Translations under genes and position numbers: made by a program
The notes under the pieces: model-generated
Told to the model about the DNA's origin: nothing
Databases searched by the model: none
The model's input: only the letters and a program-made list of their open reading frames with translations
Shown: piece by piece, positions 13,548 to 33,544 of the stretch
Position numbering within the stretch: the stretch's first letter is position 1
How the letters are laid out: the number at the start of each line of letters is the position of its first letter
Origin: Gemmatimonadales bacterium
GTDB lineage: Bacteria > Gemmatimonadota > Gemmatimonadetes > Gemmatimonadales > GWC2-71-9
Length of the DNA: 36,361 nt
Assembly (NCBI GenBank): GCA_046715295.1
Contig: JBKJZM010000259.1
Location: 1-36,361, forward strand
Direction of reading: 5' to 3'

Positions 13548-14309
13548 ATGAGTAGTGCCATGTCCGGAGTACGAAGGAGCCACCCTTCGCTTCCCGCCAT
13601 CGAGTTGGAGCCATCTCTCGTCCGGCAACATTACCGCGACTGGAGCCAGCACGGCACGAACGGCGTCTCTTCGGATTGGGCCCGGCGTGGAATCAATCTG
13701 CTGCTCGCCCTGATGGCCATCATGCTGACACTGCCAATCATGCTGTTCGTGGCCGTGCTGGTGTGGTTGACCTCCCGGGGGCCGGTCCTCTACACCCAGG
13801 TCCGCATCGGGCTCGATCGGCGCGCACAGACAACCGGCACGCAGAACCATCGTCGCGAGCAGGACCTCGGTGGACAGCCCTTCACCATCTATAAGTTCCG
13901 CACCATGCGGGTCGATGCCGAGCAGGGGAGCGGGGCGGTCTGGGCCCAGCAGCGCGATCCCCGGGTCACCGCCGTGGGTGGGCTCCTGCGCCAGTATCGC
14001 CTGGACGAGCTACCCCAGCTGCTCAACGTGCTCAAGGGCGAGATGAACATCGTGGGGCCTCGCCCCGAGCGGCCCACCATCTTCGCCGAGCTGCGGGAGC
14101 ACATTGCCGAGTACCCGCTGCGCCAGCGGGCCAAGCCCGGCATCACCGGACTGGCGCAGATCAACCACCACTACGACCGCTCGCTCGAGGACGTGCGCAC
14201 CAAAGTCCACTACGACCTGGAGTACATCCGCCGCCGGAACCTGTGGGAAGATCTGCTGATCATGCTCAAGACCATCCCCGTTATCCTGCTCCGGCGTGGG
14301 GGCTGGTAA
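13548..14309 (+). CDS. Undecaprenyl-phosphate sugar phosphotransferase (Bac_transf family, short single-TM type); priming enzyme
   Basis: One TM segment (INLLLALMAIMLTLPIMLFVAVLVW) is present. Family motifs include SRGPVLYTQVRIG, FTIYKFRTM, DELPQLLNVLKGEMNIVGPRP and GITGLAQI. Confidence 0.85.
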   Translation: MSSAMSGVRRSHPSLPAIELEPSLVRQHYRDWSQHGTNGVSSDWARRGINLLLALMAIMLTLPIMLFVAVLVWLTSRGPVLYTQVRIGLDRRAQTTGTQNHRREQDLGGQPFTIYKFRTMRVDAEQGSGAVWAQQRDPRVTAVGGLLRQYRLDELPQLLNVLKGEMNIVGPRPERPTIFAELREHIAEYPLRQRAKPGITGLAQINHHYDRSLEDVRTKVHYDLEYIRRRNLWEDLLIMLKTIPVILLRRGGW

Positions 14310-14400
14310 GATCGCTCGAGCGTGCCTTCCGATCCGGACCGTCCCCGGCAACATTATGGCTCGATCCGGCATATTCCAGCAGACAGTCAGAGGGGTGTGA

Positions 14401-15894
14401 ATGGGACTCGGGGTGACAGCTCCCGCGGAGCGTTCGGACCGGAGCGGCACGCACACAGCGCTGCTCCTCGGTATCATCGCGCTCGCAATTGTGCTGCGGT
14501 TCTGGCGCCTCGGCGATTGGGGATTCGACAGCGACGAGATCTTCATGCTGCGAGACTCCATCGATATCCGGCCCCGGAACCCGCGGCCGCTCATGTACCT
14601 CCTCAACCACTACCTGGTCGGTTCATTCCTGCCGCTCGATGAGTTCGGACTCCGGGTACTCCCCGCATTGTTTGGAGTGCTCGGTATTCCCGTGTTTTAC
14701 GTCGTGGCCCGTCGTCTGGTGGGCGCCAGAGCAGCCCTCTTTGGCGCTTTCCTGCTGGCCACCAGTGGCTTGCACGTCTACTACTCCCAGTTCGCGCGCT
14801 ACTGGACCCTGGTGTTCATGCTGTGCGCAGTCTATCCCTATGCCATCTATCTGGGCTTCCGGGAAAGAAATCGGCCGCTACTTCTCCTGGGCATCGCCAC
14901 GGCGGGCCTGGCCGCCCTGGCCCACCCGGCATCGGTGCTTCCCGCGGGAGGACTGGCGCTCTGGTTACTGGCAACCTACGCCCGGCGGGCTCGCCCGGAG
15001 CGTCTGTGGCGCGAGAGGAGCGTTCGCTGGGGCCTTCTCGTGCTCGTCATCCTGGCGGCCGCAGCGGCGGTGCAGTTCATCCCCTTGCTCCGCGCCTGGA
15101 TCGTCCAGCGGGACACGATTCCCCGAGGCGAGTTTCTTCTCCACCTGCCGGTGACACCAGGCGTGAAGCAGGCCCTATATCTGTCCGCCTACGTGGAAAG
15201 CCTGAGCCTGGCCTTGGCGCTGACCGGGAGTCTCGGCATTTACCTGTTGTGGCAGAGGCGCGACCGGTCGCTGGCGGTGCTGCTGGCCTTCATGTTCGTG
15301 TTCCCGGTGGCCTTTCTGGTCCTGCTGTCATTCCGTACGCCGGTTTCGACCTTCTATTTGGTCCCGACGCTGCCGATCATGTTCATCGGTGCAGGAGTGC
15401 TTCTGGACCACGTGGCGAGCGTGGACTGGGGGGTGAGGCCCCGCTGGCTGCTGTCATTCGTGCTTGCGGTCCTCATCATTGCGGCGGGAGCGCCGACCCT
15501 CATCTCCCAGTACCGGGACGGGCGGCGCTATGATTTCCGTGGGGCAGCGCAGTGGCTCCAGAAACGCATGGCGCCGGGCGATGTCATCTACTCCGATCAG
15601 GCCGAGGTGACCACCCATTACCTGGCGCGAGCGCAGGCTCAACGCCTGGTTGCCGATCCTCAGCTGCTCACCCAGTCGGTGCGCCGGTTGAAACAGTCCG
15701 GAGGGTCGTTGTGGATTATCGCGCCCTACTCCGCTCAAGGGGGCCATCGGACCAACCCAAGGCTGGGCGGGTTGAAAGCGTGGATCTATGACAACTGCCG
15801 GTTACGCCATGTGGTGGGAGTGGCGCGGTTGGACTTCAGAGTGAATGAGCTCCAGATCTACCAGTGCCCCGGTCGCCCGATCGGCACCTCATAA
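14401..15894 (+). CDS. GT-C fold membrane glycosyltransferase (ArnT/PMT_2-like)
   Basis: 497 aa and highly hydrophobic, with many predicted TM segments. An acidic DSDE motif follows the first TM. The soluble C-terminal domain is ~130 aa. An RBS gagggg precedes the ATG. Confidence 0.7.
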   Translation: MGLGVTAPAERSDRSGTHTALLLGIIALAIVLRFWRLGDWGFDSDEIFMLRDSIDIRPRNPRPLMYLLNHYLVGSFLPLDEFGLRVLPALFGVLGIPVFYVVARRLVGARAALFGAFLLATSGLHVYYSQFARYWTLVFMLCAVYPYAIYLGFRERNRPLLLLGIATAGLAALAHPASVLPAGGLALWLLATYARRARPERLWRERSVRWGLLVLVILAAAAAVQFIPLLRAWIVQRDTIPRGEFLLHLPVTPGVKQALYLSAYVESLSLALALTGSLGIYLLWQRRDRSLAVLLAFMFVFPVAFLVLLSFRTPVSTFYLVPTLPIMFIGAGVLLDHVASVDWGVRPRWLLSFVLAVLIIAAGAPTLISQYRDGRRYDFRGAAQWLQKRMAPGDVIYSDQAEVTTHYLARAQAQRLVADPQLLTQSVRRLKQSGGSLWIIAPYSAQGGHRTNPRLGGLKAWIYDNCRLRHVVGVARLDFRVNELQIYQCPGRPIGTS

Positions 15895-16707
15895 ATCCCG
15901 CTCCTCGGAACCGCCGAGTGTCCGGCGCAACACCCGCTTGAGGCCGGTTGGACTGTAGGCGTAGGCGTAGCGGCCGACGGCGAACAGATACATCCAGCGC
16001 GGCAGCTTCAGCTCCCGCACCACTCGGGCCTGGACCCGGGCAAGACCCCGCTGCCGATCGGCATACTTGAACGAACGGTGGAAGAAGCTGGAAGCATGAA
16101 CATGGTGCTCGCCAATGACCTCAGGGATGTTGGCAAACCGCCACCCCAGCTTGGCTGCGCTGAGCCACAGTAGCAGGTCCTCCAGGTCAGCCACCTCAGG
16201 GTAGCCACCCGCGTCAGCCCAGACTCGCCGGCGAAACATGACGATAGTGTTGGCGAAGGGAATGGACCGGGCCATGGCCGGAATGATCGCGTCATGGTCG
16301 GTGGGCGGCATGCGAACGTAGCGTTCCCCGCGATTCTGATCGACGAGCACGTAATACCCGCCCACCACCCCCACTTCGGCATGCGCGTCGAGGAACTCCA
16401 CCTGCAGGCGCAACCGGTCGGGATAGCTGGTGTCGTCGAAATCCTGACGGGCGATGTACTCGCCTCTCGCCTGGGTCAGGCCGTAGTTCGCCGCCTTGGT
16501 CAGTCCGAGCCGGCCGGGGGAGAACACCCGGATCCGGGAGTCGCGCCTCGCGAGGTCCCGCAGGATTTCGGGGGTGCGGTCCTGCGATCCATCGTCCACC
16601 AGCACCCACTCGAAGTCTTCGAAGGTCTGACCCAGAATGCTGGGGATGGCACGATCGATGTACGGCTCACCGTTATACACGGTCGTAACCACGCTTACAC
16701 GCGGCAT
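15889..16707 (-). CDS. Family 2 glycosyltransferase
   Basis: VSVVTTVYNGEPYIDRAIPSILGQTFEDFEWVLVDDGS and the DxD-like motif QDFDD are present. ATG 16707 is preceded by GGAGGA. The ORF-track start at 16743 is a TTG extension. Confidence 0.85.
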   Translation of the reverse strand: MPRVSVVTTVYNGEPYIDRAIPSILGQTFEDFEWVLVDDGSQDRTPEILRDLARRDSRIRVFSPGRLGLTKAANYGLTQARGEYIARQDFDDTSYPDRLRLQVEFLDAHAEVGVVGGYYVLVDQNRGERYVRMPPTDHDAIIPAMARSIPFANTIVMFRRRVWADAGGYPEVADLEDLLLWLSAAKLGWRFANIPEVIGEHHVHASSFFHRSFKYADRQRGLARVQARVVRELKLPRWMYLFAVGRYAYAYSPTGLKRVLRRTLGGSEERDL

Positions 16708-16739
16708 CTTTCCTGACGTTCCTCCATTGCTCGAGGCGG

Positions 16740-17954
16740 TCAAGCGGTGACTGGACGGGGGCCGCGCGTCGAACGAGGCCGGACTCCCCTGAGGGGCAAC
16801 TCAGCAGCTTGCGGGACTTCTACCCCCACAACCGGCCACGCCGCCAGCAGACCCAGGACGAGCCAGGACACCTTGTGTTGGTGCCATCCCAGGGGTGTAA
16901 GCACCATCATGAGCGTTGCCAGCTCGACCAGCCCGGTGCGCTTTTCGAACGTGGGGAGCCGGAGCAATCGTTTTGCTATCAGCACGAACATGGTGAGGTA
17001 GATGAATAGTCCGACGACTCCCTCTTCCACGAGCACTACCAACCAGGTGCTGTGAGGAGCGACGTTCCCGATTCTCAGACCCACCGCGGGATACCACCCT
17101 GCCGGTCCGTGCCCCTGGAAGGGGCGATCGGGGACGGTGGACATACCACCCTTCCAGATCCGGAGACGACTGTTCAAGTCTCCCGTGGAGATCTCCGACC
17201 GGGTCGTCGAGAGACGCTCGAAGGCGCCCTCCGGCACAAAGTTCACCGCCACCAGGCTCGCGGCGACCATGACCACCACCGCCGCGATTCGCACACCTCG
17301 CCGTACCTGGTGGAGGGTCACGGGGACGACCAGGAGCGCCACGATGGCCGCCAACAGGGCGCCTCGGGAGCCGGTGAGCAGAATGCCGAGGGTGCCGGCC
17401 ACAAAATAGAGGCGGTTCAACCATCGTTGAAGCCCACTGGCGGTGGTCGACGCCAGGTACCAGGCCAACGGCAGGGCCAAAGCCAGGATTGCGCCGAGGT
17501 CGTTGGGATCGAAGCCACTGGCCGAGAACCGCTCGGCATGCTCCTGGATGCCGACACCCGTGAGATAGTTGAGGATGGTGCTCCCGGCGGCAACGTAGGC
17601 ACCCAGGACATAGGCCTGGAAAAGGCCCAGCAGGCGGCCGCGGGTGAGAGACGCTTCCCAGATGACCCACAACATGACGAAGATCTGAAGGTAGGTATTG
17701 AGATCCCTGACTATGCTTTCCTGGCGAGCGATCCCCCAGAACGCCGAGAGCAGCGTCCAGGCGAAGTAAGCGGTCGCGACGTAGTGAAAGGAAACCAGCG
17801 GGCGCACCTTCCCGCGAAGGACCATATGCAGGATTGTGGCGCCGACAGCCCCTAATCCCAGGACGGAACTGATCGTGCCCAGGCCCGGCAGGACCACCAT
17901 GTTCTGCCAGGGTATGGTGAACACGAAGAGCCAGACAAAGAGATATGCGAGCAT
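16740..17954 (-). CDS. O-antigen ligase/polymerase family membrane protein (Wzy_C-like)
   Basis: 404 aa and polytopic. The characteristic TGSRGALLA motif is followed by a large loop and further TM segments. Confidence 0.75.
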   Translation of the reverse strand: MLAYLFVWLFVFTIPWQNMVVLPGLGTISSVLGLGAVGATILHMVLRGKVRPLVSFHYVATAYFAWTLLSAFWGIARQESIVRDLNTYLQIFVMLWVIWEASLTRGRLLGLFQAYVLGAYVAAGSTILNYLTGVGIQEHAERFSASGFDPNDLGAILALALPLAWYLASTTASGLQRWLNRLYFVAGTLGILLTGSRGALLAAIVALLVVPVTLHQVRRGVRIAAVVVMVAASLVAVNFVPEGAFERLSTTRSEISTGDLNSRLRIWKGGMSTVPDRPFQGHGPAGWYPAVGLRIGNVAPHSTWLVVLVEEGVVGLFIYLTMFVLIAKRLLRLPTFEKRTGLVELATLMMVLTPLGWHQHKVSWLVLGLLAAWPVVGVEVPQAAELPLRGVRPRSTRGPRPVTA

Positions 17955-17968
17955 ATCAGCAACTCCGC

Positions 17969-19153
17969 TTATACATGAGGCTCTGCAAGTTCGACGCCCT
18001 TGGTCACGTTGCCCTCACCCCGAGGCAGCGACGCCGAAACGCCCTTCTGCTTCAGCAGCTCTTCGAATAGCCCTATCCAGCGATTCGCCATGGCTCGCAT
18101 GCCGTACTGGGCCGCGATGTGGTCCCGTCCATGGCGCCCCATTTGCTCTTGCTCCTCGCGCGAGCGCGCCATGAGCTCCCGCATGGCCTGGGACAGTGCG
18201 GCCGAGTCCCGGGGTGGCGCCAGAAATCCGCTCTGACCCGACTCCACCAGCTCCGGCACCCCTCCGACCCGGGTGGCGACAACCGGGACGGCCGCGGCGA
18301 GAGCCTCCATAACTACGTTGGGCATACCTTCCCATGCTGAAGACAGCACGAACCCATCGGCGGCGCTCAGAAGCGCCGGAATGTCGTGGCGGACTCCGAG
18401 AAACTTCACCTGTGAGGCGATGCCCAGTTGCTGGGTCCTCAGTCTCAACTCATCCAGGAGCGGCCCCCGCCCCGCGATGGCCAGGTAGGCGGGCGCCGTG
18501 GCGAGGGGCTGAAATGCCTCCAGCATCGTAGGATAGTCTTTCTGATCCCACAGCCGCCCCACGGCGAGCCACAGGAAGTCCCGGGGCGAGAGACCGAGAT
18601 CTTTCCGAATTCGCTCGCGGTCCTGCGCGGAGCTGGTCAGCGATGCGGTCTCGACGCCGTTGGGAATTACCCGAGACTTACCACCCGGCAGCAACCGGCG
18701 CCTCCTCAGTGACTCGGCCACCTGCTCGGAGTTCGTGGTGCAGCAGTCGTCCATCCAGTTGGTCAGCCGCATCAGCCAGTCACGGGCGGCACTCCCATTC
18801 TGCTCGCTGCGAATGGACGTCACGATGAGCGGCACTCCCGCGAATCTGCCCGCCAGACGTCCCAGGAGATTGGCGTGATACATGAAGCTCGTCAGCAGGT
18901 GTGGCTGCCAGTCCCGCAAGACGGCGACGAAGCGCTGGAAGGAACGCCAATCTGCCTGCCCACGCTGCATGTCGAGGCTGATGACAGGCAAGCCTTCGAT
19001 CACGGCCTGCCGCCCCATCTCCTCGAGCGGGGTCATGGAAACTAAGCGGACCTCGAAATCGTTGGCGAGGAGCGCGCGTGCCAGGTACAGGATTTGACGG
19101 TCGGCGCCGCCCATGCCCAAACTCGTCGACAACAGCAGGACTCTCCGGGTCAT
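17969..19153 (-). CDS. Family 4 (GT-B, Glycos_transf_1) glycosyltransferase
   Basis: The N-terminus is VLLLSTSLGMGGADRQ. The C-terminal region SSAWEGMPNVVMEALAAAVPVVATRVGGVPELV is an EX7E-type motif. The ATG overlaps the upstream stop (ATGA 19150-19153). Confidence 0.85.
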   Translation of the reverse strand: MTRRVLLLSTSLGMGGADRQILYLARALLANDFEVRLVSMTPLEEMGRQAVIEGLPVISLDMQRGQADWRSFQRFVAVLRDWQPHLLTSFMYHANLLGRLAGRFAGVPLIVTSIRSEQNGSAARDWLMRLTNWMDDCCTTNSEQVAESLRRRRLLPGGKSRVIPNGVETASLTSSAQDRERIRKDLGLSPRDFLWLAVGRLWDQKDYPTMLEAFQPLATAPAYLAIAGRGPLLDELRLRTQQLGIASQVKFLGVRHDIPALLSAADGFVLSSAWEGMPNVVMEALAAAVPVVATRVGGVPELVESGQSGFLAPPRDSAALSQAMRELMARSREEQEQMGRHGRDHIAAQYGMRAMANRWIGLFEELLKQKGVSASLPRGEGNVTKGVELAEPHV

Positions 19154-20250
19154 CCGGCGCTCTCGACCAGACTGAGATATTGATTGACGGCCGTGCTCCT
19201 GGTGAAGGGCGCCAGATCCTGCAAGGGAACGGCTCCGGCGGGCTGCTCCAGCGACCTCAATATGGCCTCGCCGAGCGCGGCCGAATCGCCCACCGGGACC
19301 AGCGCCCCGAGCCGACCGTCCTGGAGAATCTCCCGGGGCCCGCTGGGGCAGTCGGTGGAGACCACCGAGGCCCCGGCTGCCAGAGCCTCGATGAGCACTG
19401 TCGGCAGCCCCTCTCTCATCGACGAGAGAACAAACACGGCGGACCGTGCCATGTACGCCAGCGCGTTGTCCCGGAAGCCGGGCAGGTCGACATCCTCCGT
19501 AAGACCGAGCTCAGCGATCAAGGATGTCAGGGCCGGCCGCTCCTCTCCGTCACCCAGGATCAGGAGTCGTGCGGCGCGGCGCTTCCGTACGACCGCAAAG
19601 GCCCGGATGAGGTTGGGAAAGTCCTTGGCCCTGGTCAGGCGCCCAACGCCCAGGATCACCGGCGGCTGACCGGGCGCAAGCCAGGGGTGATCGACAGGCT
19701 GCTGCGCCTGGGCCAGGAGGCTGTCGCTGATCACGGGATTATAGATCACCCGCACCTTGGCGAGCGGAAATCCGGTGGCGGTACTCAGGCCGCGGGCGAC
19801 CCCGTGCGACACCGCCACGACCTGATCGGCCCACGGATAAAAGGTCCGGATCAGCAGTGGGAGCATCCGGCTGCGCGCGTTGGGGGAATTGCCCGTGGTC
19901 TGGGTCAGGTTCGTGTGCACCGTACAGATCACTCGCACCCCGGTTCCGCCTAATCGCCGGGCCCACAGGGCGATGACGCCCGCGTGGTCCATAAAAGTGA
20001 TGATCGCCGCCGGACGCTCTCGGCGGAGATACGCCACCAGCGCCGGCAGGCTCGAGATGACCCGGGACGCGTCGAGGTCGATCAGGCGCACCCCCTCAGG
20101 AATCTGCCGCTTGAACTCGCCTCGGCCGCTTGCCGCAACCAGATCGGTGGGAACACCGAGAGCGGCAAAGCCCTCTGCAAGATTGATGGCTACCCGTTCG
20201 GCCCCACCATAACAAAGCGACGGCACAAAGAAAGCCACACGCCCCGTCAT
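19150..20250 (-). CDS. Family 4 (GT-B, Glycos_transf_1) glycosyltransferase
   Basis: VAFFVPSLCYGGAERV and SSMREGLPTVLIEALAAGASVVSTD are present. The ATG overlaps the wzx stop (ATGA 20247-20250). Confidence 0.85.
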   Translation of the reverse strand: MTGRVAFFVPSLCYGGAERVAINLAEGFAALGVPTDLVAASGRGEFKRQIPEGVRLIDLDASRVISSLPALVAYLRRERPAAIITFMDHAGVIALWARRLGGTGVRVICTVHTNLTQTTGNSPNARSRMLPLLIRTFYPWADQVVAVSHGVARGLSTATGFPLAKVRVIYNPVISDSLLAQAQQPVDHPWLAPGQPPVILGVGRLTRAKDFPNLIRAFAVVRKRRAARLLILGDGEERPALTSLIAELGLTEDVDLPGFRDNALAYMARSAVFVLSSMREGLPTVLIEALAAGASVVSTDCPSGPREILQDGRLGALVPVGDSAALGEAILRSLEQPAGAVPLQDLAPFTRSTAVNQYLSLVESAG

Positions 20251-21743: not shown

Positions 21744-21744
21744 C

Positions 21745-23720: not shown

Positions 23721-23746
23721 GGTTATACCCCTGACTCGTCGTGCAT

Positions 23747-25722: not shown

Positions 25723-25724
25723 GG

Positions 25725-26552
25725 TCAGGCTGCCGAGCGGCGGCGGCCGGCCCACTGGAGCAGGTTGATGGTGAGCAACAGGGCGAACGAAGCGACCAGC
25801 ATGACCAGAGCCACGGCGGTGGCCCCCGCGTAGTCATACTGCTCCAGTTTGGTGATGATCAGCAGCGGCACGATCTCGGTCTTCATGGGCATGTTGCCGG
25901 AGATGAAGACGACGGAACCGTACTCGCCGATGGCCCGGGCAAAGGCCAGCGCGAAGCCGGTGAGCAAGGCCGGCGCCACCGTCGGGAAAACCACCCGGGT
26001 AAAAGTCTGCCACCGGCGGGCGCCAAGGCTTGCCGCCGCTTCCTCCACCTCGACTTCGAGATCGTCGAGTACCGGTTGAACTGTCCGGACCACAAAGGGC
26101 AGGCCGATAAAGACGAGCGCCACGGTGATCCCAACCCAGGTGTACGATACCTTCAGGCCCAGCGGCTCCAGATAGGACCCGATCCACCCGTTGGGCGCGT
26201 ACAGGGTGGTCAGGGCAATACCGGCAACGGCCGTCGGGAGCGCGATCGGCAGGTCCACCATGGCATCTACCACGCGCCTCCCGGGAAACCGGTAGCGCAC
26301 CAACACCCAGGCCACGAGCAAGCCGAACACGGTGTTGATCAGTGCGGCGACGAACGAGGCTCCGAACGTCACCCGATAGGAAGCCACGACCCGCGGGTCC
26401 GTCACGATCGACCAGAACTGGCTGCCCGAAAGCTCAGCCGTCCTGGTGAACACGGTGGCCAGTGGGAGGAGCACCATGAGGCTCAAGTAGGTGCAGGTGA
26501 TTCCCAGGGAAAGGCCAAATCCTGGAAGTACGCTCCTCGATTTCTGCCGCAT
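25725..26552 (-). CDS. cysT: Sulfate ABC transporter permease
   Basis: 275 aa. [31 protein letters not shown] is a CysT-like N-terminus. The EAA loop is [23 protein letters not shown]. Confidence 0.8.
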
Positions 26553-26555
26553 CGT

Positions 26556-27566
26556 CTATCGTCCCGGCTGATAGATCTGATCGAACAGGGCACCGTCAGC
26601 AAAGTGCGTGGCATGTGCCTTCTTCCACCCGCCAAACACCTCGTTTACCGTGACCAGCGTCATTTTGGGGAACTGGGCATCGTACTTCGACGCCACCGCT
26701 GCGAGCCGCGGACGATAGAAGTGCCGTGCCGCGATCTCCTGCCCGGCATCGGTGTACAGGTATTCCAGGTAGGCCTGAGCCACCTGCCTGGTGCCGTGCT
26801 TACCCGCAGTCCTGTCTACCACGGCAACCGGTGGCTCTGCCAGAATGCTGATCGAGGGGGCGACGACTTCGAACTTGCCCGGGCCCAGCTCCTTGATCGC
26901 GAGCAGCGCCTCGTTCTCCCACGCAATGAGGACGTCTCCTATGCCCCGCTCCACGAAGGTGGTGGTGGACCCCCGGGCGCCGGCATCGAGCACCGGAACG
27001 TTCTTGAACAACTTCCTGACGAACTCCCCGGCCTTGGCATCATTGCCACCCGGCTGACGCAAGGCCCAGGCCCAGGCAGCGAGGTAATTCCACCGGGCGC
27101 CCCCGGAGGTCTTGGGGTTCGGGGTGATCACCGATACGCCCGGCTTGGCCAGATCTCCCCAGTCGCGGATCCCCTTCGGGTTTCCCTTGCGGACCAGTAA
27201 CACAATCGACGAGGTGTAAGGCGAGCTGTTGTTCGGCAGGCGGCTCTGCCAGTCGGCCGGCAGTGCCCTGCCCTTGTCCGCGATCTGATCGATGTCGTAC
27301 GCCAGTGCCAGGGTTACGACGTCCGCCTCCAGGCCATCGATCACCGATCGGGCCTGTTTACCTGAGCCACCGTGCGATTGGCGGATCTTCACGTCCTGCC
27401 CGGTCTTGCCTTTCCAGTATGCCGCGAACCGCTGATTGAAGTCTTCGTATAACTCACGCGTCGGATCATACGACACGTTCAGGAGCGTCACCGGCTTCTG
27501 CGAGATCTGCCCCACAAGCGGTACCGCGGCACCTGGCAGGAGCAGTGTAAGTGCAAGCGTCTTCAT
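26556..27566 (-). CDS. sbp: Periplasmic sulfate-binding protein
   Basis: A signal peptide is followed by [17 protein letters not shown]...[28 protein letters not shown], which closely parallels E. coli Sbp/CysP. Confidence 0.85.
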
Positions 27567-27580
27567 GACAGCATTTCCCT

Positions 27581-28984
27581 TTAGTACGAAGTCTGGAATC
27601 GGGTGATCACGGCGTTCTCGGGCTCCCGGTCGCCCGTCGCAGCGCCGCCGATGAATGTCGTGTGCTCATAGTTCACTGCGACCTTCACTGCACGGGTGAA
27701 GTGCCAGTTTACCCCCACACCCCATGCCTTGGCTTTCTGAACGCTGGCTGCAGTGGTGGCGTACACCGGGAAGGCCGCCGGATCCAGGTGGAGCTCGCCA
27801 TAGCGGCTGACCAGCTCCAGCGCACCGAGGCCACCCTCCTTGAGATCGAACGGCCTCCTGGGTGCCGGGCTCCGGAACCCCGCCTTCTCGCCGGTGAGAA
27901 AGAACGACCCCTCCGCCTGCCAGGCGGTGTGCTCCAGCTCCGCGGTAACACCGGCGCGGGTAACCTCACTACGGGAGAGGACGTACTCGCCCAGCAGACC
28001 GAGCGGTCCGGTGTAGAAGTAGCCCTGGGGAGAGAGTCGAGTCCGCTGTCCGTTGGCGAACACGTTGTTGGCCGGAGTAGTGGCGCTGCTGTTGTAGCGG
28101 AAGAGGGTCTGCTGACCCGGCGTTCGGTACGATGGGAGTCCGGGCGCAGCGGTTGACCCTCGCTCGAACCCGGTGCTCCCGGCCACGCCGACGCCAAGCC
28201 CCCGGAGGGACCCTACTTTGAACGGCTGAACGAAAAACCGGGCCGCGAAGTCCTTCGCGTTGCTCAGGTCATCGCCCCCGTTGGCGAGATCAGGAACGCC
28301 GTTGAAGACACCCACCTGGTAGGCAAGCAGGCCCTCGGCGATGTCGCCGGCCACCTGGAGGCCGACATCCCGGCTCGGCACCAGGTTGCTGGGCAGTCCG
28401 CGTTCAGCGAAAGCGATGTCGGTAGCTGATTGGAGCCTTTCGAGGCCGATCGGCGGCTTGAACTTGCCGGCGCGGACAGTGAACTGAGGGGCAAACTTTC
28501 CGTCCCAATAGGCGTCGAAGATGGTAGGAGACGCGCCCCCGAAGTCAGGCATGAGCCGAAAATCGAAGTACCGGCCGACGGTAGCTTCAATGATCGGGCG
28601 GGCTCGGCGGATCAGAAGGTTGTCTATGCCCACGCTAGCATCCGTACTTGGGAAGAGGCGCCCGTCGCTCTGGAAGTAGCCGCGGAACCGCAGCGTGTAC
28701 TTGCCGTCGGCAGATTTGAGGCTGAACCCGTCCTTGGCGCTTGCGGTCGTGGTTACCCCGTCCTTTGCCGCCGCGGCCGCGCTATCCGCGGCCAGCTCAC
28801 CCAACCGCCTCAGGATTCGAAGCTGCTGGTCCAGCTCGTCCACCCGGGCAGCCAGGGATGGCGGGCTGTCACCGCGGGCGTGATCGGCCGAGCCTCCGTC
28901 CTGCTGCGCCCACAGCTGTTGGCCTGCTCCTACACTGACACTCCACAGCGTTAATCCGCTGATCCAGGACCGCAGGCCTTTCAT
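27581..28984 (-). CDS. Anion-selective porin of the OprO/OprP (Porin_O_P) family with an N-terminal coiled-coil
   Basis: ATG 28984 is preceded by AAGAGGAGAGG. The signal peptide is [29 protein letters not shown] heptad-like segment [14 protein letters not shown] follows. Beta-strand patterning ends in ..RFQTSY. The 46-codon upstream ORF extension is rejected. Confidence 0.7.
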
Positions 28985-29066
28985 TGCACCTCTCCTCTTG
29001 CTCGCGCGGTTTCCGTTGGTTCTGATGTCGAACCAGGCTGGTGGGCAGTCTGGGTCCAGCCCTACC

Positions 29067-29099
29067 CTATTTAGTCTATCTACCAGATAGAGTAAATAG
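29067..29099. promoter_or_regulatory. 33 bp AT-rich palindrome (candidate operator) upstream of the porin-sbp-cysTWA block
   Basis: The sequence is CTATTTAGTCTATCT-acc-AGATAGAGTAAATAG. The arms are 15 bp with one symmetric mismatch and a 3 bp spacer. It lies 83-115 nt upstream of the porin ATG and 35 nt downstream of the rrf2 stop, and it stands out in GC-rich DNA. Confidence 0.5.
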
Positions 29100-29114
29100 G
29101 CAAATGGCATGCCG
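29100..29114 (-). promoter_or_regulatory. Weak sigma-54-like -24/-12 element (cGGCATgccatTTGCc) abutting the palindrome
   Basis: The minus strand reads CGGCAT-N5-TTGC with correct GG-N10-GC spacing. A sigma-70-like TTGACG with an 18 nt spacer to TATTTA is an alternative reading of the same region. Confidence 0.25.
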
Positions 29115-29133
29115 CTCGTCAAGGGTCACGGTA

Positions 29134-29580
29134 TCAGGATCGAGTGACGGTGCGTGTTGCGAGGTCTACCTTGTGCCGGAGGCTCGCCAGGCTGGTGCCG
29201 TCCAGCACCTTCGCCGTGGCATCGCGAACCTCTTTCATCAGCAGATGCACACCGCAGACCTCCTCGCTCCGGCAGTCGGCGCAGGGCACGTAGGCCGTCT
29301 GGCTGGCGCAGGGAACCGGGGCGAGCGGCCCGTCGAACATGCGGACGATCTGACCGAGGTAGATGTCAGCCGGGTCGCGGGCAAGGCGATAACCCCCTCC
29401 CTTTCCCTTCCGGCTCTGCAGGATGCCCTGGTTCTTCAGCCCCAGGAGAATGAACTCGAGAAACTTGGCGGGAATCTGTTCGGCTCGCGCGATATCGGAA
29501 ATCCGGACCGGCTCGTCACCCTGGTGGTTGGCGAGTGCCAGAAGCGCCTTGATGGCGTATTTGGCCTTCTTGGAGAGCAT
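29134..29580 (-). CDS. Rrf2-family transcriptional regulator with a C-terminal four-cysteine cluster
   Basis: The N-terminal wHTH is MLSKKAKYAIKALLALA...ISDIARAEQIPAKFLEFILLGLKNQGILQSRKGKGGGYRLA. Cysteines are at 91, 100, 103 and 109. ATG 29580 lies 4 nt after the cysD stop. The 43-codon ORF extension is rejected. Confidence 0.85.
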   Translation of the reverse strand: MLSKKAKYAIKALLALANHQGDEPVRISDIARAEQIPAKFLEFILLGLKNQGILQSRKGKGGGYRLARDPADIYLGQIVRMFDGPLAPVPCASQTAYVPCADCRSEEVCGVHLLMKEVRDATAKVLDGTSLASLRHKVDLATRTVTRS

Positions 29581-29584
29581 GCCC

Positions 29585-30478
29585 TTACATGTACCCGTCG
29601 CGCCGGAGGGTCTCGAGCCCGCCGCCGCCGTCCTTGTCCTGCGCCCGGCCGGAGCGCTCGGCGATATTGGCGAACTTTCCTGACTGGAGCTCCATGATAA
29701 TATCGTCAACGTTCATGGCCTCGGAGTCGACCGACGCGGTGCAGGTATAGCAGCCAAGAGAGCGGTAGCGCTTACCGCTACCCTGATTGTAGTAGAGCGA
29801 CACGGTCGGGATCTCCTCCCGGCGGATGTACTCCCAGATGTTGAGCTCGGTCCAGTCGAGGAGCGGATGGATCCGAAGGTGGGTGCCGGGCGCGAATTCG
29901 GTCTTGAACTGATTCCAGAACTCGGGGGGCTGATCGCCGACGTCCCACTGCGACTCCGTGGTCCGGGGTGAAAAATACCGCTCCTTCGAACGGCTGCCCT
30001 CTTCGTCGGCGCGCACGCCAACGATGACACCGGTGAACGGCTCCGTATTCCGGTCGAGCTCGTACACCTTCTTCGTGTGGTTCAGCCGGTAGCGGGGCCA
30101 CTCACCGCTCAAGGTATGCTTGAGCGCGTCCGTCTTGAGTGCCTTACAGCAGGCGATCCGATCGATGGCTCCGTCGGGAAAGGTGCGCTTCTGCTCCAGC
30201 GCCTGGCGGTTCTGGCCGTAGATCATGGTCAGGTTCCACTCCAGCGCCAGCCGGTCCCGGTACTCGATCATCTCCGGGATCTTATAGGAGGTGTCGATGT
30301 GGATTAGGGGGATCGGCACGTGCCCAAAGAAGGCCTTGCGCGCCAGCCAGAGGAGCACCGTGCTGTCCTTCCCGATAGACCAGAGCATGCCCAGGTTCTT
30401 GAAGTTGGCATAGGCCTCCCTCAGAATGTGCACGCTTCGATTTTCCAGCTGGTCGAGATGATCCATGCCGCCTGCCAT
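29585..30478 (-). CDS. cysD: Sulfate adenylyltransferase subunit 2
   Basis: [16 protein letters not shown]...[20 protein letters not shown] (PP-loop SxGKDS) is present. The conserved C-terminus is ...[22 protein letters not shown] 30478 overlaps the cysC stop (ATGA). Confidence 0.9.
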
Positions 30479-31008
30479 CAGAGTTGGCCTCCAAACCGCG
30501 CGATTACCTTTGCGACGCACTGATCCACACTCAAGGTGCGGGTATCCAGGGTCAGCTCCGGGTTCTCGGGTGCCTCGTACGGGTCATCGATTCCGGTGAA
30601 GTTCACAATTTCGCCCCGCCGCGCGCGGGCATAGAGTCCCTTCGGATCCCGCCGTTCACACTCCGCGAGAGGGGTCGCGACATAGATCTCGACGAAGCGG
30701 TGGCACAGCGCCCGAATGAAGTCCCGAGATTCCCGGTAGGGCGACACGAATGATGCCACCACCGTGACCCCGTGCGCCGCCAGCCGGCTCGCCATGTAGC
30801 CGGTGCGGCGCAGGTGCTCCTCACGCTCGGCCCGGGTATAGCCCGTATTCGGGAACACGGACCGCAGCGCATCGCCATCGAGATACTCAACCTCAACGCC
30901 GCGGCGGACCAGCTCCTGGTGCACCTGCGTCGCGATGGTGCTCTTGCCTGAGCCCGACAAGCCAGTGAACCATAACACGACGGTTTCGTCCGGCTTACCG
31001 TGCGGCAT
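30478..31008 (-). CDS. cysC: Adenylylsulfate (APS) kinase, canonical active-site motifs
   Basis: The P-loop is [15 protein letters not shown]. The motifs [20 protein letters not shown] and [11 protein letters not shown] are all intact. Confidence 0.9.
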
Positions 31009-31013
31009 GGACC

Positions 31014-31775
31014 TCAGTAGCCAATAACAAAGCTGGGGTTCCGAAGTTCCGGCTTATTGTAGGTGAGCGGTGACGATCGCTCCCCGTTGCGGCCGGACTG
31101 CCGGTAGATGCAGTCTCCGGCGGCGACATCCCACTCCATTGTCGGACCCAGCCGGGGGTAAATGTCGGCCCGTCCATCCGCGACCCAGCAGAACTTGAGG
31201 GAACTGCCGGCCTTCACCCGACGGGCGACCGGCAAGTTGCGCAAGTATTCCTCGAGCTCGGGCGCGGGGTGGGAGAGGCTTTCTACCACCGTCAGCGGCT
31301 CGCCGGGCCGAGGAGGGCTGGAGTAGATCCGCTCGGGCGTACCGCCCTTCTCCTGGCGCCATGATCCCATGCCCTTCACCGCCCAGTAGAGCAGATCGAG
31401 TGCCGGGGCAAGCACCACCCCCAGAACCGGTTCTCCATCCTCAATAAGGGCCACGTTCACGGTGAACTCCGCCCGGCGCTTGATGAACTCCTTGGTGCCG
31501 TCCAAAGGATCGACCAGCCAGAATCGGCGCCACATCCGTCGGCCCTCGAAGCCTGGCGCCTCTCCCTCTTCCGAGATGACTGGCGTGTCTGGCTCCAGCT
31601 CCAGGAGCCCCTCAACCAGGATGTCATGAGCCGCCTCATCGGCGAGCGTCACAGGGCTGGAATCTGCCTTCTGCCGCACTCCAGCCGGCACGGCCCCGTC
31701 GTAGTAGTCCATCGTGGCGCTGCCGGCTTCACGGGCCAGGCGCGTGACGGTCTCGAGAAGCTCCGCCGCTACCAT
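31014..31775 (-). CDS. cysQ: 3'(2'),5'-bisphosphate nucleotidase (PAP phosphatase)
   Basis: [44 protein letters not shown] and WDVAAG parallel E. coli CysQ. Confidence 0.85.
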
Positions 31776-33544
31776 GGCCGGAAGATGATGCCCTTGTCCT
31801 GAAGGTGGGCCTTGAGGCGATCAACCGACTCGGACACCGCTCCCCCGGGAAGCTGGAGGTCGCATGCGAGATCGGTGGTGATGGTGTCGCCGGCCCAGAC
31901 GGTCTCGATCGAGTCGGGGGGCACCGCAGTCTTGATTACTTCCAGATCGTCCTGGGTGAGCTCGGCCGCCGCCACTACCAGGATAATACCGGCATCAAGC
32001 ATGAGGTTCGCCACCTCGGCCAGCCGCCGCATGTGCTCCAGGCGATTCTCCTGCTTCCGTTCAATGTCGGCATCGACGCCGTACAGAACATTGCCGATGC
32101 CCATGAAATAAACGACCTTGCCGTCCTCGAACAGCTTTCCCTCCAGCGCCTTTGCGATGCCTTTGCGATCGGTCTCATGCTCCCCCGTGACCAGAATCAA
32201 CGCCGCCTTTTGGTTGTACTTCTCAGCCCGCCGTTCGGGCTGGATGAAGCTGGCCTCCCACTTGTAGTTTCGGAGAAGTACTCGATCGCGTACCGTGGTC
32301 TGGCGATCGGGCAGTGCTTCACGGACGATGCCGCCGCCGCGAATCTCGAAATCATCGACGATCACGAAGCGGCTGGTGGCGGCGACATCCTCGGCCAGAT
32401 CGCAGGCGATGGCGCGGTCCAGCTTCAATACGCATTCGGCCACATCGTGGCGCTTGATGACGTTTCGTTGCTCGGTGGGATCGAGGGTGGACGCATCCAT
32501 CACCCGAAGGATCTCTTCCACCCGGGCCGTCACACGGGCGGTTCCCAGCTTGAGCAGGTACTCCTTGCGGTTCACCATCGCTTCCTTGCCGAGCCAGAAG
32601 AGGCTGACCCTGAGGCGCGTGGTGACCTGAGGCCGAGGCTGGTTCTCCAGCGTGGCCATCTCCCCGCGCGGGATGTAGATCTGCTCCTGCAGCGTGAAGC
32701 CGACAGCGGCGCCTGCCTCTGCCCGGCCCTGCAGGGGCCGGTTGAAGGCCTCGATCGTCTTCACCCGGCTCTTTTTGCCGGACGGGTAGAAGATCACTGA
32801 ATCACCCACCGTAATGGCGCCGGAGTCGATCGTCCCGGCGACAATTCGCCGGTCGTCGCCCTGCTTGGTGAACTTGTACACGTCCTGGACCGGCATCCGA
32901 AAGGCACGTTCCGTAGGCGGGGGCTCACTCCGGAATGAGTCGAGCGCTTCGAGGACGGTGGGCCCTTGATACCACGGAAGGCTGGCCGAGCGATCGGCGA
33001 TGTTGTCGCCGCCGCGGGCAGACACGGGAATGAAGGAGGAGGGCCGGATACCCACCTGATCGAGGAAGGCTCCGTACTCGCGGACGATCCGGTCATAGAC
33101 CCCCCGGTCCCACCCGACCAGGTCCATCTTATTCACCACCACCGCGAGCTGGCGGATGCCGAGCAGGGAGACCATGTAGCCATGGCGGCGGGAATTCTCC
33201 TGCACCCCCTCCTGGGCGTCGATCACCAGCAGGGCCGCCTCAGCGCGCGCGGCCCCGGTGATCATGTTCTTCAGAAACTCGATATGGCCGGGCGCGTCCA
33301 GGATCAGGTAGTGCCGGAGCCGGCTCTTGAAGAACACCCGAGCGGCGTCGATGGTAATACCCTGAGCCTGCTCGTCCCTCAGGGCGTCCAGCAGAAAGGC
33401 GTACTCAAACGGCTTGGAATTGAGCTCACACTGGGTGCGGATCTGCTCGAGCTTTCCCACGGGTAGTGAGCCGGTGTCGGCCAGGAGCCGGCCGATGACG
33501 GTGCTCTTGCCGTGATCGACGTGGCCGACGATCACGATGTTCAT
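31769..33544 (-). CDS. cysN: Sulfate adenylyltransferase subunit 1 (GTPase) fused to a degenerate APS-kinase-like C-terminal domain
   Basis: The start is [21 protein letters not shown] (G1). DAPGH (G3) and NKMD (G4) are present. The C-terminal ~153 aa aligns to CysC, but the P-loop is [11 protein letters not shown] and LDGD is replaced by MGIG. ATG 33544 has an AGGAA RBS. The 71-codon ORF extension is rejected. Confidence 0.85.

Follow-up and report, generated by a model that had tools for sequence, protein, structure and literature searches.

A probable Gemmatimonadales gene cluster for a sulfated surface polysaccharide with its own sulfate supply line

A 20-kb block of Gemmatimonadales DNA is likely a gene cluster for a sulfated surface- or exo-polysaccharide equipped with its own sulfate supply line, judging from gene content and neighborhood. 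Within the window (the whole 36,361-nucleotide stretch that was analyzed), genes for sulfate import, for PAPS synthesis and recycling, for a sulfotransferase and for Wzx/Wzy-type glycan assembly lie side by side. The core claim of a first-pass annotation, that PAPS made here serves a sulfotransferase acting on a Wzx/Wzy glycan, is supported by conservation of the gene neighborhood. Sulfated surface polysaccharides are thought to be rare in bacteria, and here one is probably encoded in soil Gemmatimonadales; as dozens of related genomes show the same linkage, this abundant group of soil bacteria probably produces such a polymer.

Gene Content and Layout of the Locus

ORF listing and start-codon inspection placed 19 genes at 13548-33544, 17 on the minus strand (the first-pass annotation had counted 16) and two on the plus strand. 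The family calls made earlier were upheld by Pfam for all genes, and CysD, CysC, CysQ, Sbp, CysT, CysW, and CysA also score above curated NCBIfam cut-offs. Co-directional packing along the minus-strand train is tight: cysN and cysQ overlap by 7 nt, and cysD is followed by rrf2 after 4 nt; gaps of 14, 3, and 2 nt separate porin/sbp, sbp/cysT, and cysT/cysW, with an ATGA overlap at cysW/cysA; 26 nt lie between cysA and a sulfite-oxidase-like gene, 32 nt between that gene and the sulfotransferase, and 1 nt between the sulfotransferase and wzx; wzx/GT4 and GT4/GT4 are ATGA overlaps, and GT4/wzy and wzy/GT2 are gaps of 14 and 32 nt. All of these agree with the earlier junction list, which had omitted the 5-nt gap between cysQ and cysC and erred at two places: cysC and cysD overlap by 1 nt (TGATG) rather than as ATGA, and the coordinates give 149 nt, not 150 nt, between rrf2 and the porin gene. 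The convergent ends of the GT-C gene (plus strand) and the GT2 gene (minus strand) do overlap at 15889-15894, and profile annotation (Pfam, NCBIfam) likewise bore out that none of cysH, cysIJ/sir, wza, and wzc is in the window. Nucleotide-sugar genes were not found in the window by the same annotation; because these and a Wza/Wzc exporter are missing from it, calling the locus self-contained was too strong.

Sulfate Import, Activation and Transfer

The import genes, all on the minus strand, encode an OprO/P-type anion porin, Sbp, and CysTWA, which are predicted to carry sulfate to the cytoplasm. The anion-selective outer-membrane porin of the OprO/OprP family (27581..28984; Pfam Porin_O_P, 4.9e-27) probably serves sulfate entry; most loci with the sulfate ABC genes also have a homologue. 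Downstream are sbp, for the periplasmic sulfate-binding protein (26556..27566; NF008022, 524 bits, cut-off 288), the sulfate ABC permease genes cysT (25725..26552; TIGR02139, 429 bits, cut-off 246) and cysW (24808..25722; TIGR02140, 423 bits, cut-off 329), and the ATPase gene cysA (23747..24811; TIGR00968, 382.5 bits, cut-off 342.75; Pfam CysA_C_terminal and TOBE_3).

On the same strand, cysN (31769..33544) encodes the GTPase subunit of ATP sulfurylase, which bears an APS-kinase-like pseudo-domain at its C-terminus (Pfam GTP_EFTU, GTP-eEF1A_C, and APS_kinase); its TIGR02034 score of 335.8 bits falls just under the cut-off of 336.1. The degenerate domain (31898..32269, minus strand), in which the P-loop differs from that of the stand-alone CysC and LDGD is replaced by MGIGN, was detected by profile matches only and not by BLASTP. 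Pfam APS_kinase also matches the CysN orthologues of related loci L001, L002, and L083. Three further minus-strand genes complete the pathway: cysQ, encoding a 3'(2'),5'-bisphosphate nucleotidase (PAP phosphatase; 31014..31775; TIGR01331, 280.9 bits, cut-off 228.8), cysC, encoding an APS kinase with an intact P-loop (30478..31008; TIGR00455, 200 bits, cut-off 138.7; Pfam APS_kinase, 3.5e-55), and cysD, for the small subunit of ATP sulfurylase (29585..30478; NF003587, 344.6 bits, cut-off 195). From these assignments, CysD/CysN are predicted to make APS, CysC to convert it to PAPS, and CysQ to hydrolyze PAP.

The predicted PAPS-dependent, carbohydrate-type sulfotransferase (21745..22620, minus strand; Pfam Sulfotransfer_3 and Sulfotransfer_1) has orthologues 59-83% identical in 47 loci, from MAGs labelled Gemmatimonadales, Gemmatimonadaceae, or Gemmatimonadota. 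Its family profile matches the bacterial sulfotransferase PDB 3RNL at 2e-58 and heparan sulfate 3-O- and N-sulfotransferases (3-OST/NDST) at 1e-16 to 1e-12. K12 (in the PSB-loop), E35, R111, and S119 are invariant across 20 orthologues, and Glu35 aligns with the glutamate of the EVHFF motif of 3-OST-1. The enzyme is heparan-sulfate-like, with PAPS-binding and catalytic residues intact.

Directly upstream lies an accessory gene for a molybdoenzyme of the sulfite oxidase family (22653..23720, minus strand; Pfam Oxidored_molyb and Mo-co_dimer) that has no heme domain and, judged by eye, no signal peptide. Its best solved relative is the Mo domain of chicken sulfite oxidase (5.4e-68), with the Mo-ligand Cys aligned. 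Only the window and four related loci (L012, L018, L035, and L038) have the gene, each time directly upstream of the sulfotransferase.

Rrf2 Regulator and Palindrome

Between the activation and import genes, a minus-strand gene (29134..29580; Pfam Rrf2, 3.9e-37) encodes an Rrf2-family transcription regulator with four Cys (residues 91, 100, 103, and 109). The protein passes the TIGR00738 superfamily cut-off but reaches none of the NCBIfam equivalog cut-offs for CymR, IscR, and NsrR; CymR, a cysteine-metabolism regulator, scores highest, yet below its cut-off. Repeat analysis of the rrf2-porin gap confirmed the palindrome noticed there earlier, the AT-rich CCTATTTAGTCTATCT-N3-AGATAGAGTAAATAGG (29066..29100, strandless), with 16-nt arms, a 3-nt spacer, and 94% complementarity. 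It occurs once in the window, against a chance expectation of 0.14 matches, and its left half-site hardly varies among 19 distinct sequences (20 sources), in which it occupies the same place between rrf2 and the porin gene. We regard it as a putative Rrf2 operator overlapping a promoter for the porin-to-GT2 transcription unit.

Polysaccharide Assembly Genes

Immediately after the sulfotransferase come minus-strand genes for a Wzx-type MOP flippase (20247..21743; Pfam Polysacc_synt_3, 6e-84; NF007773 at 232 bits, under the cut-off of 273), two GT4 glycosyltransferases (19150..20250 and 17969..19153; both Pfam Glyco_transf_4 and Glycos_transf_1), a Wzy_C-family membrane protein that may be a repeat-unit polymerase or a ligase (16740..17954; Pfam Wzy_C, 4.3e-18), and a GT2 glycosyltransferase (15889..16707; Pfam Glycos_transf_2, 1.5e-30). 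Polymerases and O-antigen or O-glycan ligases cannot be told apart by the Wzy_C match alone. On the plus strand, convergent with the GT2 gene, is a membrane glycosyltransferase of GT-C fold (PMT_2/ArnT-like; 14401..15894; Pfam PMT_2, 27.4 bits, cut-off 26.1), whose position and orientation are kept in relatives. The cluster edge is occupied by a plus-strand gene for a small monotopic polyprenyl-phosphate sugar-phosphate transferase, the predicted priming enzyme (13548..14309; Pfam Bac_transf, 2.1e-58), as it also is in L001, L014, and L036.

Conserved Linkage in Related Genomes

The comparative check proposed in the first-pass annotation showed that the gene linkage recurs. Among Gemmatimonad-labelled MAGs with a sulfotransferase orthologue and enough upstream sequence (n = 41 loci), a cys gene lies at most 4 kb upstream of the sulfotransferase in 38 and within the 10-kb flank in 40; wzx, wzy, or GT genes lie at most 8 kb from it in 34/34 Gemmatimonad-labelled loci. 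The cys-sulfotransferase (ST) linkage survives rearranged layouts: cysNQCD-rrf2-porin-sbp-cysTWA-ST, cysNQCD-ST, wza-wzc-cysNQCD-ST x4, and cysNQCD-MT-ST-MT-rrf2-porin-sbp-cysTWA. In relatives, the genes directly preceding cysN encode Wza and a Wzc that has a tyrosine-kinase-type ATPase domain. Where importer genes are absent between cysD and the sulfotransferase and upstream sequence is sufficient (11 loci), a co-directional ∼800-aa homologue of the Wzc of L002 directly precedes cysN in nine, Pfam-checked in two of these nine and in L083. As many as five sulfotransferases occur in a single related cluster. Outside the Gemmatimonad-labelled MAGs, 18 of 19 Actinomycetota-labelled loci with orthologues place them inside polysaccharide gene sets, running PGT-GT4-ST-ST-wzy-GT4.

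Fate of PAPS and Nature of the Acceptor

The cysNQCD and sbp-cysTWA genes could instead be the genome's sole set for sulfate uptake and activation, serving chiefly cysteine synthesis through CysH and sulfite reductase encoded elsewhere, with the glycan genes sharing the PAPS pool. We consider this unlikely, although several observations fit it. Identity between MAGs, leaving aside the closest relative (L001/L003), is 74-95% for cys genes, 59-69% for the sulfotransferase, and 35-80% for glycosyltransferases, a pattern of housekeeping genes; the Rrf2 protein is closest to CymR, albeit below cut-off; and E. coli-type assimilation likewise requires CysC and CysQ. A complete assimilatory pathway is reported for 18.9% of soil Gemmatimonadota MAGs, and the freshwater genome GCA_009692105.1 combines cysPUWA, cysDNC, cysQ, and a sulfite oxidase with cysH and sir. 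Against this reading, the sulfotransferase stays adjacent through rearrangements, including those that sandwich cysNQCD between wzc and sulfotransferases, and cysH and sulfite reductase genes were not seen in the window, nor in four related loci annotated with Pfam, nor among genes sampled ahead of cysN in additional loci. A published KEGG table of 47 freshwater Gemmatimonadota genomes points the same way: nine have cysD and cysNC, and only two of these have cysH and sir, the other seven lacking both. One of the seven is GCA_000695095.2, which we take to be the closed genome of Gemmatimonas phototrophica. The earlier proposal that PAPS is probably destined for sulfation and not for cysteine keeps its link to the sulfotransferase, but its exclusion of cysteine synthesis is to be softened: GCA_009692105.1 has cysH and sir beside a full importer set, so dual use is possible, and a cysH in the present genome would let PAPS supply cysteine synthesis as well.

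A sulfated O-antigen or protein/lipid O-glycan, with the Wzy_C protein as ligase and the GT-C enzyme as final transferase, is an improbable product compared with free EPS or capsule. Pfam names Wzy_C "O-antigen ligase," the protein's best NCBIfam match, though it scores far under the cut-off, is to a putative O-glycosylation ligase, some PMT_2 enzymes glycosylate proteins or lipid A, and the window has no Wza/Wzc; in relatives, however, Wza and a tyrosine-kinase-type Wzc directly precede cysN, which is typical of capsule/EPS export. Such a product would be a variant of the sulfated-polysaccharide explanation and does not contradict it. That the acceptor is a lipid, small metabolite, or protein and the wzx adjacency incidental is very improbable: Sulfotransfer_1 and Sulfotransfer_3 do include small-molecule and lipid enzymes, and 3RNL, the nearest solved structure, is titled just "Sulfotransferase" in the PDB, but among solved relatives the nearest with a known function act on heparan sulfate, a glycan, the gap to wzx is just 1 nt, and orthologues sit within polysaccharide gene sets in two phyla (34/34 and 18/19 loci, as above).

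Proposed Mechanism

For a sulfated surface polysaccharide, the Bac_transf enzyme would prime synthesis on undecaprenyl phosphate, and the two GT4 and one GT2 enzymes would assemble a short repeat unit at the cytoplasmic face. Because PAPS is cytoplasmic, we place sulfation there too: the soluble sulfotransferase would act on the lipid-linked unit while CysQ clears inhibitory PAP. Wzx would flip the unit, the Wzy_C protein would polymerize (or ligate) it, and the GT-C enzyme could decorate it in the periplasm; export would run through Wza/Wzc encoded elsewhere, whose genes directly precede cysN in relatives. The sulfite-oxidase-like enzyme may be an optional accessory supplying extra sulfate from sulfite. 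The Rrf2 protein, possibly Fe-S-bearing, would bind the palindrome in the 149-nt gap and control the second unit (porin through GT2), so that sulfate import and glycan sulfation would be switched together.

Comparison With Known Systems

The E. coli-type cys regulon comprises cysDNC, cysPUWA, cysQ, cysH, and cysIJ under the regulator CysB. The window has the same uptake and activation enzymes (CysT, CysW, CysA, Sbp, CysD, CysC, and CysQ pass NCBIfam cut-offs), but neither in the window nor in annotated related loci is cysH or cysIJ linked to them; it also differs in its Rrf2-type regulator, in a CysN with a dead kinase domain, and in operons joined with a sulfotransferase and glycan machinery. 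In rhizobia (nodPQ/nodH, lpsS), dedicated CysDN(C) paralogues give PAPS to a carbohydrate sulfotransferase with Nod factor or LPS as acceptor; importer, porin, CysQ, or Wzx/Wzy genes are not known to be linked to them.

Like our locus, the xss cluster for synechan in Synechocystis PCC 6803, whose product is chemically demonstrated to be sulfated, is Wzx/Wzy-dependent, combines sulfotransferases with glycosyltransferases, and has its outer-membrane exporter elsewhere; it is cyanobacterial, plasmid-borne, and regulated by XssQ/R/S rather than Rrf2, and the text of the paper makes no mention of PAPS or of a sulfate transporter (PMC8205485). The Wzx/Wzy cluster wps-1 of Actinoplanes missouriensis encodes WpsH, a protein with a heparan-sulfate-type sulfotransferase domain (a likeness of domain type), and resembles the Actinomycetota-labelled loci; its sulfation is inferred from genetics only, and the text mentions neither cysN nor PAPS (PMC13390465).

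Two further precedents are sulfated-capsule clusters. That of Vibrio sp. KMM 8419 shares cysC, cysN, cysD, and sulfotransferase genes inside a polysaccharide locus, of 80 genes and Kps-type, with no cysQ or "sulfate permease" in the text; the cys genes are second copies, and its authors call these and the several sulfotransferases a hallmark of sulfated polysaccharide synthesis (PMC11641403). The cluster of the marine gammaproteobacterium Cobetia marina KMM 1449, whose polymer carries Rha-2-sulfate by NMR, holds cysNC, cysD, cysQ, a sulfate uptake gene, and a sulfotransferase, as ours does, but uses ABC-transporter (Kps) export and a sulfate permease where the window has Wzx/Wzy and Sbp-CysTWA plus porin; its description includes neither an Rrf2 regulator nor a sulfite-oxidase-like gene (PMC11766843). 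These chemically proven precedents mark PAPS genes with a sulfotransferase in a polysaccharide cluster as a sign of sulfated polysaccharide. They also show that the novelty claimed in the first-pass annotation was overstated, since both capsule clusters already embed cysDNC and that of Cobetia also cysQ and a sulfate permease (PMC11766843; PMC11641403). What appears to be new is the phylum, the Wzx/Wzy assembly route, the pairing of porin and ABC importer, the conserved Rrf2-linked palindrome, the optional sulfite-oxidase-like gene, and the pseudo-kinase domain on CysN.

Gene Content and Layout of the Locus

Seventeen co-directional minus-strand genes run from 33544 down to 15889 and are met by two convergent plus-strand genes, encoding the priming transferase (13548–14309) and a GT-C glycosyltransferase (14401–15894), as determined by ORF listing and start-codon inspection. 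The first-pass annotation had described the same train and convergent pair with one minus-strand gene fewer (16), and all of the junctions it quoted were reproduced except cysC/cysD, which share a single base (TGATG) rather than overlapping as ATGA. The rrf2/porin gap measures 149 nt and not 150; it does hold a palindrome as reported. A 5-nt cysQ/cysC gap was missing from the original list. Gaps within the porin-to-GT2 stretch are all 32 nt or shorter, and the sulfotransferase gene ends 1 nt upstream of wzx. G+C content is 62–69% over the window with no compositional break at the locus. A recently acquired horizontal island was rejected because GC is flat over locus and flanks (0.62–0.69) and the block is syntenic across many MAGs.

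Pfam confirmed every family named in the first-pass annotation. CysD, CysC, CysQ, Sbp, CysT, CysW, and CysA passed curated NCBIfam cut-offs, and CysN scored 335.8 against a cut-off of 336.1. The genes for PAPS synthesis and recycling (cysD, cysN, cysC, and cysQ) all lie inside the polysaccharide cluster (Pfam, NCBIfam), linked to sulfate uptake genes for an ABC importer, Sbp-CysTWA, rather than a permease (NCBIfam), and to a porin of the Porin_O_P family (Pfam). The Wzx/Wzy set comprises Bac_transf (2.1e-58), Polysacc_synt_3 (6e-84), and Wzy_C (4.3e-18), the last of which fits a polymerase or a ligase alike. Kps-type ABC-transporter export genes were not found in the window by Pfam, Wzx and Wzy_C being there instead. 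The claims that the window lacks Wza/Wzc and cysH or cysIJ also held: a Pfam search of the 36 kb returned no Wzc/Wzz co-polymerase, no Wza exporter, and neither cysH nor cysIJ/sir. Likewise, no APS or PAPS reductase (CysH) and no sulfite reductase of the CysIJ or Sir kind is encoded in four Pfam-annotated related loci or among the sampled genes upstream of cysN.

The C-terminus of CysN carries a degenerate APS-kinase-like domain (31898–32269, minus strand) in which the P-loop is lost and the LDGD motif reads MGIGN, while an intact stand-alone CysC is retained two genes downstream. An APS_kinase domain was also found by Pfam on the CysN orthologues of three related MAG loci (L001, L002, and L083). 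BLASTP gave no significant match between the CysN C-terminus and CysC, the relationship being visible to profile methods only, which fits a degenerate domain. Some fungal ATP sulfurylases have kinase-like domains, and by analogy the CysN pseudo-kinase domain may have a scaffold or allosteric role.

The Sulfotransferase and Its Sulfite Oxidase-Like Neighbor

The sulfotransferase (21745–22620, minus strand) opens straight with the PAPS-binding loop (MLPTFIVIGAAKAGTT) and is therefore predicted to be soluble and cytoplasmic. Over 2,400 homologues scored below 1e-10, the best 120 clusters being 66–98% identical. A profile built from 20 orthologues matched the bacterial sulfotransferase structure 3RNL first (2e-58), followed by heparan sulfate 3-O-sulfotransferases and the NDST N-sulfotransferase domain (1e-16 to 1e-12). 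In the 20-orthologue alignment K12 (GAAKAGTT), E35, and R111 and S119 (LRNPxDRAYSDY) are invariant, and these residues align with the PSB-loop lysine, the EVHFF glutamate, and the RxxxRxxS motif of 3-OST-1. By the established roles of these residues in 3-OST-1, the lysine would bind the 5′-phosphosulfate, the arginine and serine the 3′-phosphate, and the glutamate would be catalytic. Because of the conserved residues and the profile matches to heparan-sulfate-type enzymes, the protein looks like an active sulfotransferase of glycan-modifying type.

The gene before it (22653–23720, minus strand) encodes a sulfite oxidase-like molybdenum enzyme with Oxidored_molyb and Mo-co_dimer domains and no heme domain (Pfam). 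It matches the Mo domain of chicken sulfite oxidase at 5.4e-68 and keeps the Mo-ligand cysteine (TLVCAGLRR vs. TLQCAGNRR); the position that we take to be Arg450 in sulfite oxidase numbering is a lysine. Scores fell below the NCBIfam equivalog cut-offs for SorA, SorT, and SoxC (184, 139, and 159 bits vs. 600, 570, and 420, respectively), no signal peptide was evident by eye at the N-terminus, and no cytochrome gene is adjacent. The gene occurs in only five loci (the window, L012, L018, L035, and L038), always directly upstream of the sulfotransferase and preceded by either cysA or cysD. Since its place is fixed irrespective of which of these precedes it, it appears tied to the junction of the supply and glycan modules and not to the importer.

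Conserved Linkage of Supply, Sulfotransferase, and Glycan Genes

A sulfotransferase scan over one genome per GTDB species yielded 80 loci, onto which the window proteins were mapped by tblastn and to which Pfam-annotated contexts were added. Orthologues were present in 47 loci from MAGs that bear a Gemmatimonadales, Gemmatimonadaceae, or Gemmatimonadota label. The first-pass annotation had proposed comparative genomics of gene-set co-occurrence as a check, and among the 41 of these loci whose upstream sequence extends for 2.5 kb or more, a cys gene lies within 4 kb upstream of the sulfotransferase in 38 and within the 10-kb flank in 40, the exception being L041. Homologues of wzx, glycosyltransferase, or wzy genes lie within 8 kb of the sulfotransferase in all 34 Gemmatimonad-labelled loci with downstream sequence.

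Gene order differs among these loci without breaking the linkage. Type A, that of the window, reads cysNQCD-rrf2-porin-sbp-cysTWA-(SO)-ST-wzx-GTs-wzy-GT2, followed by the convergent GT-C and priming transferase genes (SO, sulfite oxidase-like; ST, sulfotransferase); in its closest relative, L001/L003, the sulfotransferase is 83% identical and the sulfite oxidase-like gene is the sole absence. In type B, cysNQCD-(SO)-ST are joined directly and the importer is absent. Locus L002 reads wza-wzc-cysNQCD and then four sulfotransferases, L083 reads wza-wzc-cysNQCD-methyltransferase-ST-methyltransferase-rrf2-porin-sbp-cysT-cysWA, and L084 has five sulfotransferases within one cluster. A co-directional homologue (∼800 aa) of the L002 Wzc lies directly before cysN in nine of the 11 type-B loci with upstream sequence (Pfam was used to check Wzc identity in L002 and L008; the arrangement in L083 is the same). 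A position of cysNQCD between a capsule co-polymerase and sulfotransferases is unexpected for housekeeping sulfate activation and so argues for functional coupling over chance adjacency. Between cysA and further sulfotransferases, L083 (17523–20597) and L084 (6872–9902) also encode an HTTM (vitamin-K-carboxylase-like) membrane protein, a small unknown protein, and an amine-oxidase-type flavoprotein.

Another 26 loci, labelled Actinomycetota and found on megabase MAG contigs (including L009, L013, L016, L020, L022, L033, L044, L050, L054, L058, and L062), carry an orthologue 60–68% identical in PGT-GT4-ST-ST-wzy-GT4 clusters. There, polysaccharide genes were found in 18 of 19 testable loci and cys genes within 10 kb in none of the 19. 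This sulfotransferase thus accompanies glycan genes in two phyla, but its linkage to cys genes is a peculiarity of the Gemmatimonad-labelled loci. Its occurrence in Actinomycetota-labelled clusters without cys genes suggests that a sulfotransferase-glycan module passed between phyla. Two further contigs are probably mis-binned: L005, labelled Chloroflexota, has a porin-sbp-cysTWA-ST stretch 85–91% identical to the window, and L052, labelled Velamenicoccus archaeovorus, has a sulfotransferase cluster of the Actinomycetota type.

The Rrf2 Regulator and Its Candidate Operator

The Rrf2 protein passed the NCBIfam superfamily model alone (115.3 vs. 73.3) and fell below the equivalog cut-offs of the two families nearest to it, CymR (75.7 vs. 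195) and IscR (74 vs. 207.55). It contains four cysteines, at residues 91, 100, 103, and 109. The palindrome in the rrf2/porin gap (29066–29100) has 16-nt arms that are 94% complementary around a 3-nt spacer, and is AT-rich within a genome of ∼65% G+C. The window contains it only once, against a chance expectation of 0.14 matches. Across 19 distinct sequences, drawn from 20 sources, its left half (CCTATTTACTCTATC) hardly varies at the rrf2-porin junction; the position is shared by L001, L007, L023, L024, L034, L035, L037, L042, L043, L045, L057, L064, L070, L071, L073, L080, L083, and L084, and L083 keeps the left half although rrf2 no longer adjoins cysD. The TATATA-like right half varies more, so that together the halves could form a −35/−10 promoter (TTTACT … TAAATA) under a dimer operator. 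The palindrome is probably the binding site of the Rrf2 protein and overlaps a likely promoter; we infer that a second transcription unit, extending from the porin gene to GT2, would begin there.

A consensus scan of the window for promoters and terminators gave nothing above shuffled expectation, with no terminator-like signal beyond chance in the porin-to-GT2 unit. A second palindrome upstream of cysN, as autoregulation of the first operon would suggest, was found neither in the window nor in relatives. Searched against Rfam at gathering thresholds, the whole window had no match, and the 410-nt region upstream of cysN therefore holds no known riboswitch or leader. Within this region, shared with the divergent copper oxidase-like gene, a terminator-like hairpin followed by TTTTTT (33793–33818, plus strand) lies where no plus-strand gene ends; it could have arisen by chance or belong to an uncharacterized small transcript.

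Flanking Genes

On the minus strand, three regulatory genes (8833–12710) closely follow the priming transferase: one for a histidine kinase, one for a sigma-54-dependent response regulator, and one for a response-regulator-GGDEF protein. None had a qualifying tblastn match in any related locus; they are probably outside the core locus and could exert local control of EPS through c-di-GMP. Divergent from cysN, a 781-aa predicted lipoprotein (33957–36302, plus strand) combines Big_1 domains, a kelch propeller, and a galactose-oxidase E-set domain. Among NCBIfam models it comes closest to the radical copper oxidase GlxA, at 217.7 bits against a cut-off of 800. The related locus L019 has a homologue with 51% identity near cysN (51–1325), and the lipoprotein may be a glycan-oxidizing accessory enzyme. 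The window also encodes a formate-dehydrogenase-like Mo enzyme, an alcohol dehydrogenase, an aminotransferase, a DNA glycosylase, and an NYN-domain protein.

Predicted Fate of the PAPS

The first-pass annotation had proposed that PAPS made at this locus feeds sulfation of a Wzx/Wzy-assembled glycan and not cysteine synthesis. That interpretation is supported, the decisive evidence being comparative: the cys-sulfotransferase-glycan linkage is kept through changes of layout. We consider sulfation the likely principal, selected sink of the PAPS, and doubt that it is the exclusive one.

It is possible that the locus serves both purposes, its PAPS also entering cysteine synthesis. Between MAGs the cys genes are 74–95% identical by tblastn, compared with 59–69% for the sulfotransferase and 35–80% for glycosyltransferases (L001/L003 aside), as dual use would have it. 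One freshwater genome (GCA_009692105.1, column 12 of Table S6 in the portion available) combines cysPUWA, cysDNC, cysQ, and sulfite oxidase with cysH and sir (PMC10581226). Against dual use, assimilatory sulfate reduction was described as “patchy” over more than 400 Gemmatimonadota genomes, with a complete pathway in just 18.9% of soil MAGs (PMC10581226). In the same portion of Table S6, which lists 47 freshwater genomes, cysD and cysNC occur in nine (columns 4, 6, 7, 10, 12, 22, 36, 44, and 46) and columns 6, 8, 12, 16, and 21 carry both cysH and sir (PMC10581226). By this column overlap, seven of the nine cysDN genomes listed there are without both cysH and sir. One of the seven, GCA_000695095.2, is, we believe, the closed genome of Gemmatimonas phototrophica. 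Its entries in that part of the table include cysNC, cysD, cysQ, and sulfite oxidase and neither cysH nor sir (PMC10581226).

Sulfation as the principal use can be extended to a joint reading for many Gemmatimonadales, which we put forward tentatively and think less likely than not as a whole. A polysaccharide locus would have captured high-affinity sulfate import (porin and Sbp-CysTWA) and PAPS synthesis solely for glycan sulfation, in organisms without cysH and sulfite reductase; sulfate would be a building block of an extracellular polyanion, not a nutrient; transcription of the import-and-sulfation unit would be switched by an Rrf2 repressor through a conserved operator; and sulfated EPS would be a core order-wide trait.

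Implications and Comparison With Known Systems

In papers from 2021 and 2026, bacterial sulfated polysaccharides are described as scarcely known outside cyanobacteria, or as exclusive to them (PMC8205485, PMC13390465). From the window and about 45 related loci it can be predicted that members of the Gemmatimonadales, which are widespread in soil, abundant in dry soils, and poorly represented in culture, routinely make a sulfated surface polymer with a dedicated supply chain. If so, a major terrestrial source of sulfated glycans would be added, which we suggest could affect water retention, cation binding, and soil aggregation. The occurrence of cysDN(C) without cysH and sir in many Gemmatimonadota genomes would be explained, and a compact co-regulated set (importer, PAPS synthesis and recycling, and heparan-sulfate-like sulfotransferase) would become available for engineering microbial sulfated polysaccharides. 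A literature search on Gemmatimonadota with sulfotransferases, sulfated EPS, or sulfate assimilation found no paper describing this locus.

The short list of precedents in the first-pass annotation was incomplete, since PAPS genes are already embedded in clusters from Cobetia and Vibrio. Like the window, the sulfated capsule cluster of Cobetia marina KMM 1449, whose polymer bears Rha-2-sulfate (PMC11766843), combines cysN/cysC, cysD, cysQ, and sulfate uptake (there a permease) with a sulfotransferase. The capsule locus of Vibrio sp. KMM 8419 embeds cysC, cysN, and cysD, there as second copies, with three sulfotransferases, a combination its authors call a hallmark of sulfated polysaccharide synthesis (PMC11641403). 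The window differs from this type in having Wzx and Wzy_C and not Kps-type export. Closer in assembly is the synechan (xss) system, a Wzx/Wzy cluster with two sulfotransferases and an outer-membrane exporter encoded elsewhere, the paper on which mentions neither PAPS nor a sulfate transporter in its text (PMC8205485). Actinoplanes wps-1, which the Actinomycetota-labelled loci without cys genes resemble, is a Wzx/Wzy cluster with a heparan-sulfate-type sulfotransferase and support from genetics only (PMC13390465).

A polysaccharide cluster with embedded PAPS supply is already known from chemically validated precedents, and the Gemmatimonad system would be a further form of it, predicted from sequence. 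Judged by gene order in the MAGs, such a cluster has been kept throughout an order whose members abound in soil. Undescribed in Cobetia, Vibrio, synechan, and wps-1 are the phylum, the union of Wzx/Wzy assembly with a complete supply module, an ABC importer that comes with an anion porin of its own, an Rrf2 gene with a conserved palindrome, and the occasional sulfite oxidase-like gene.
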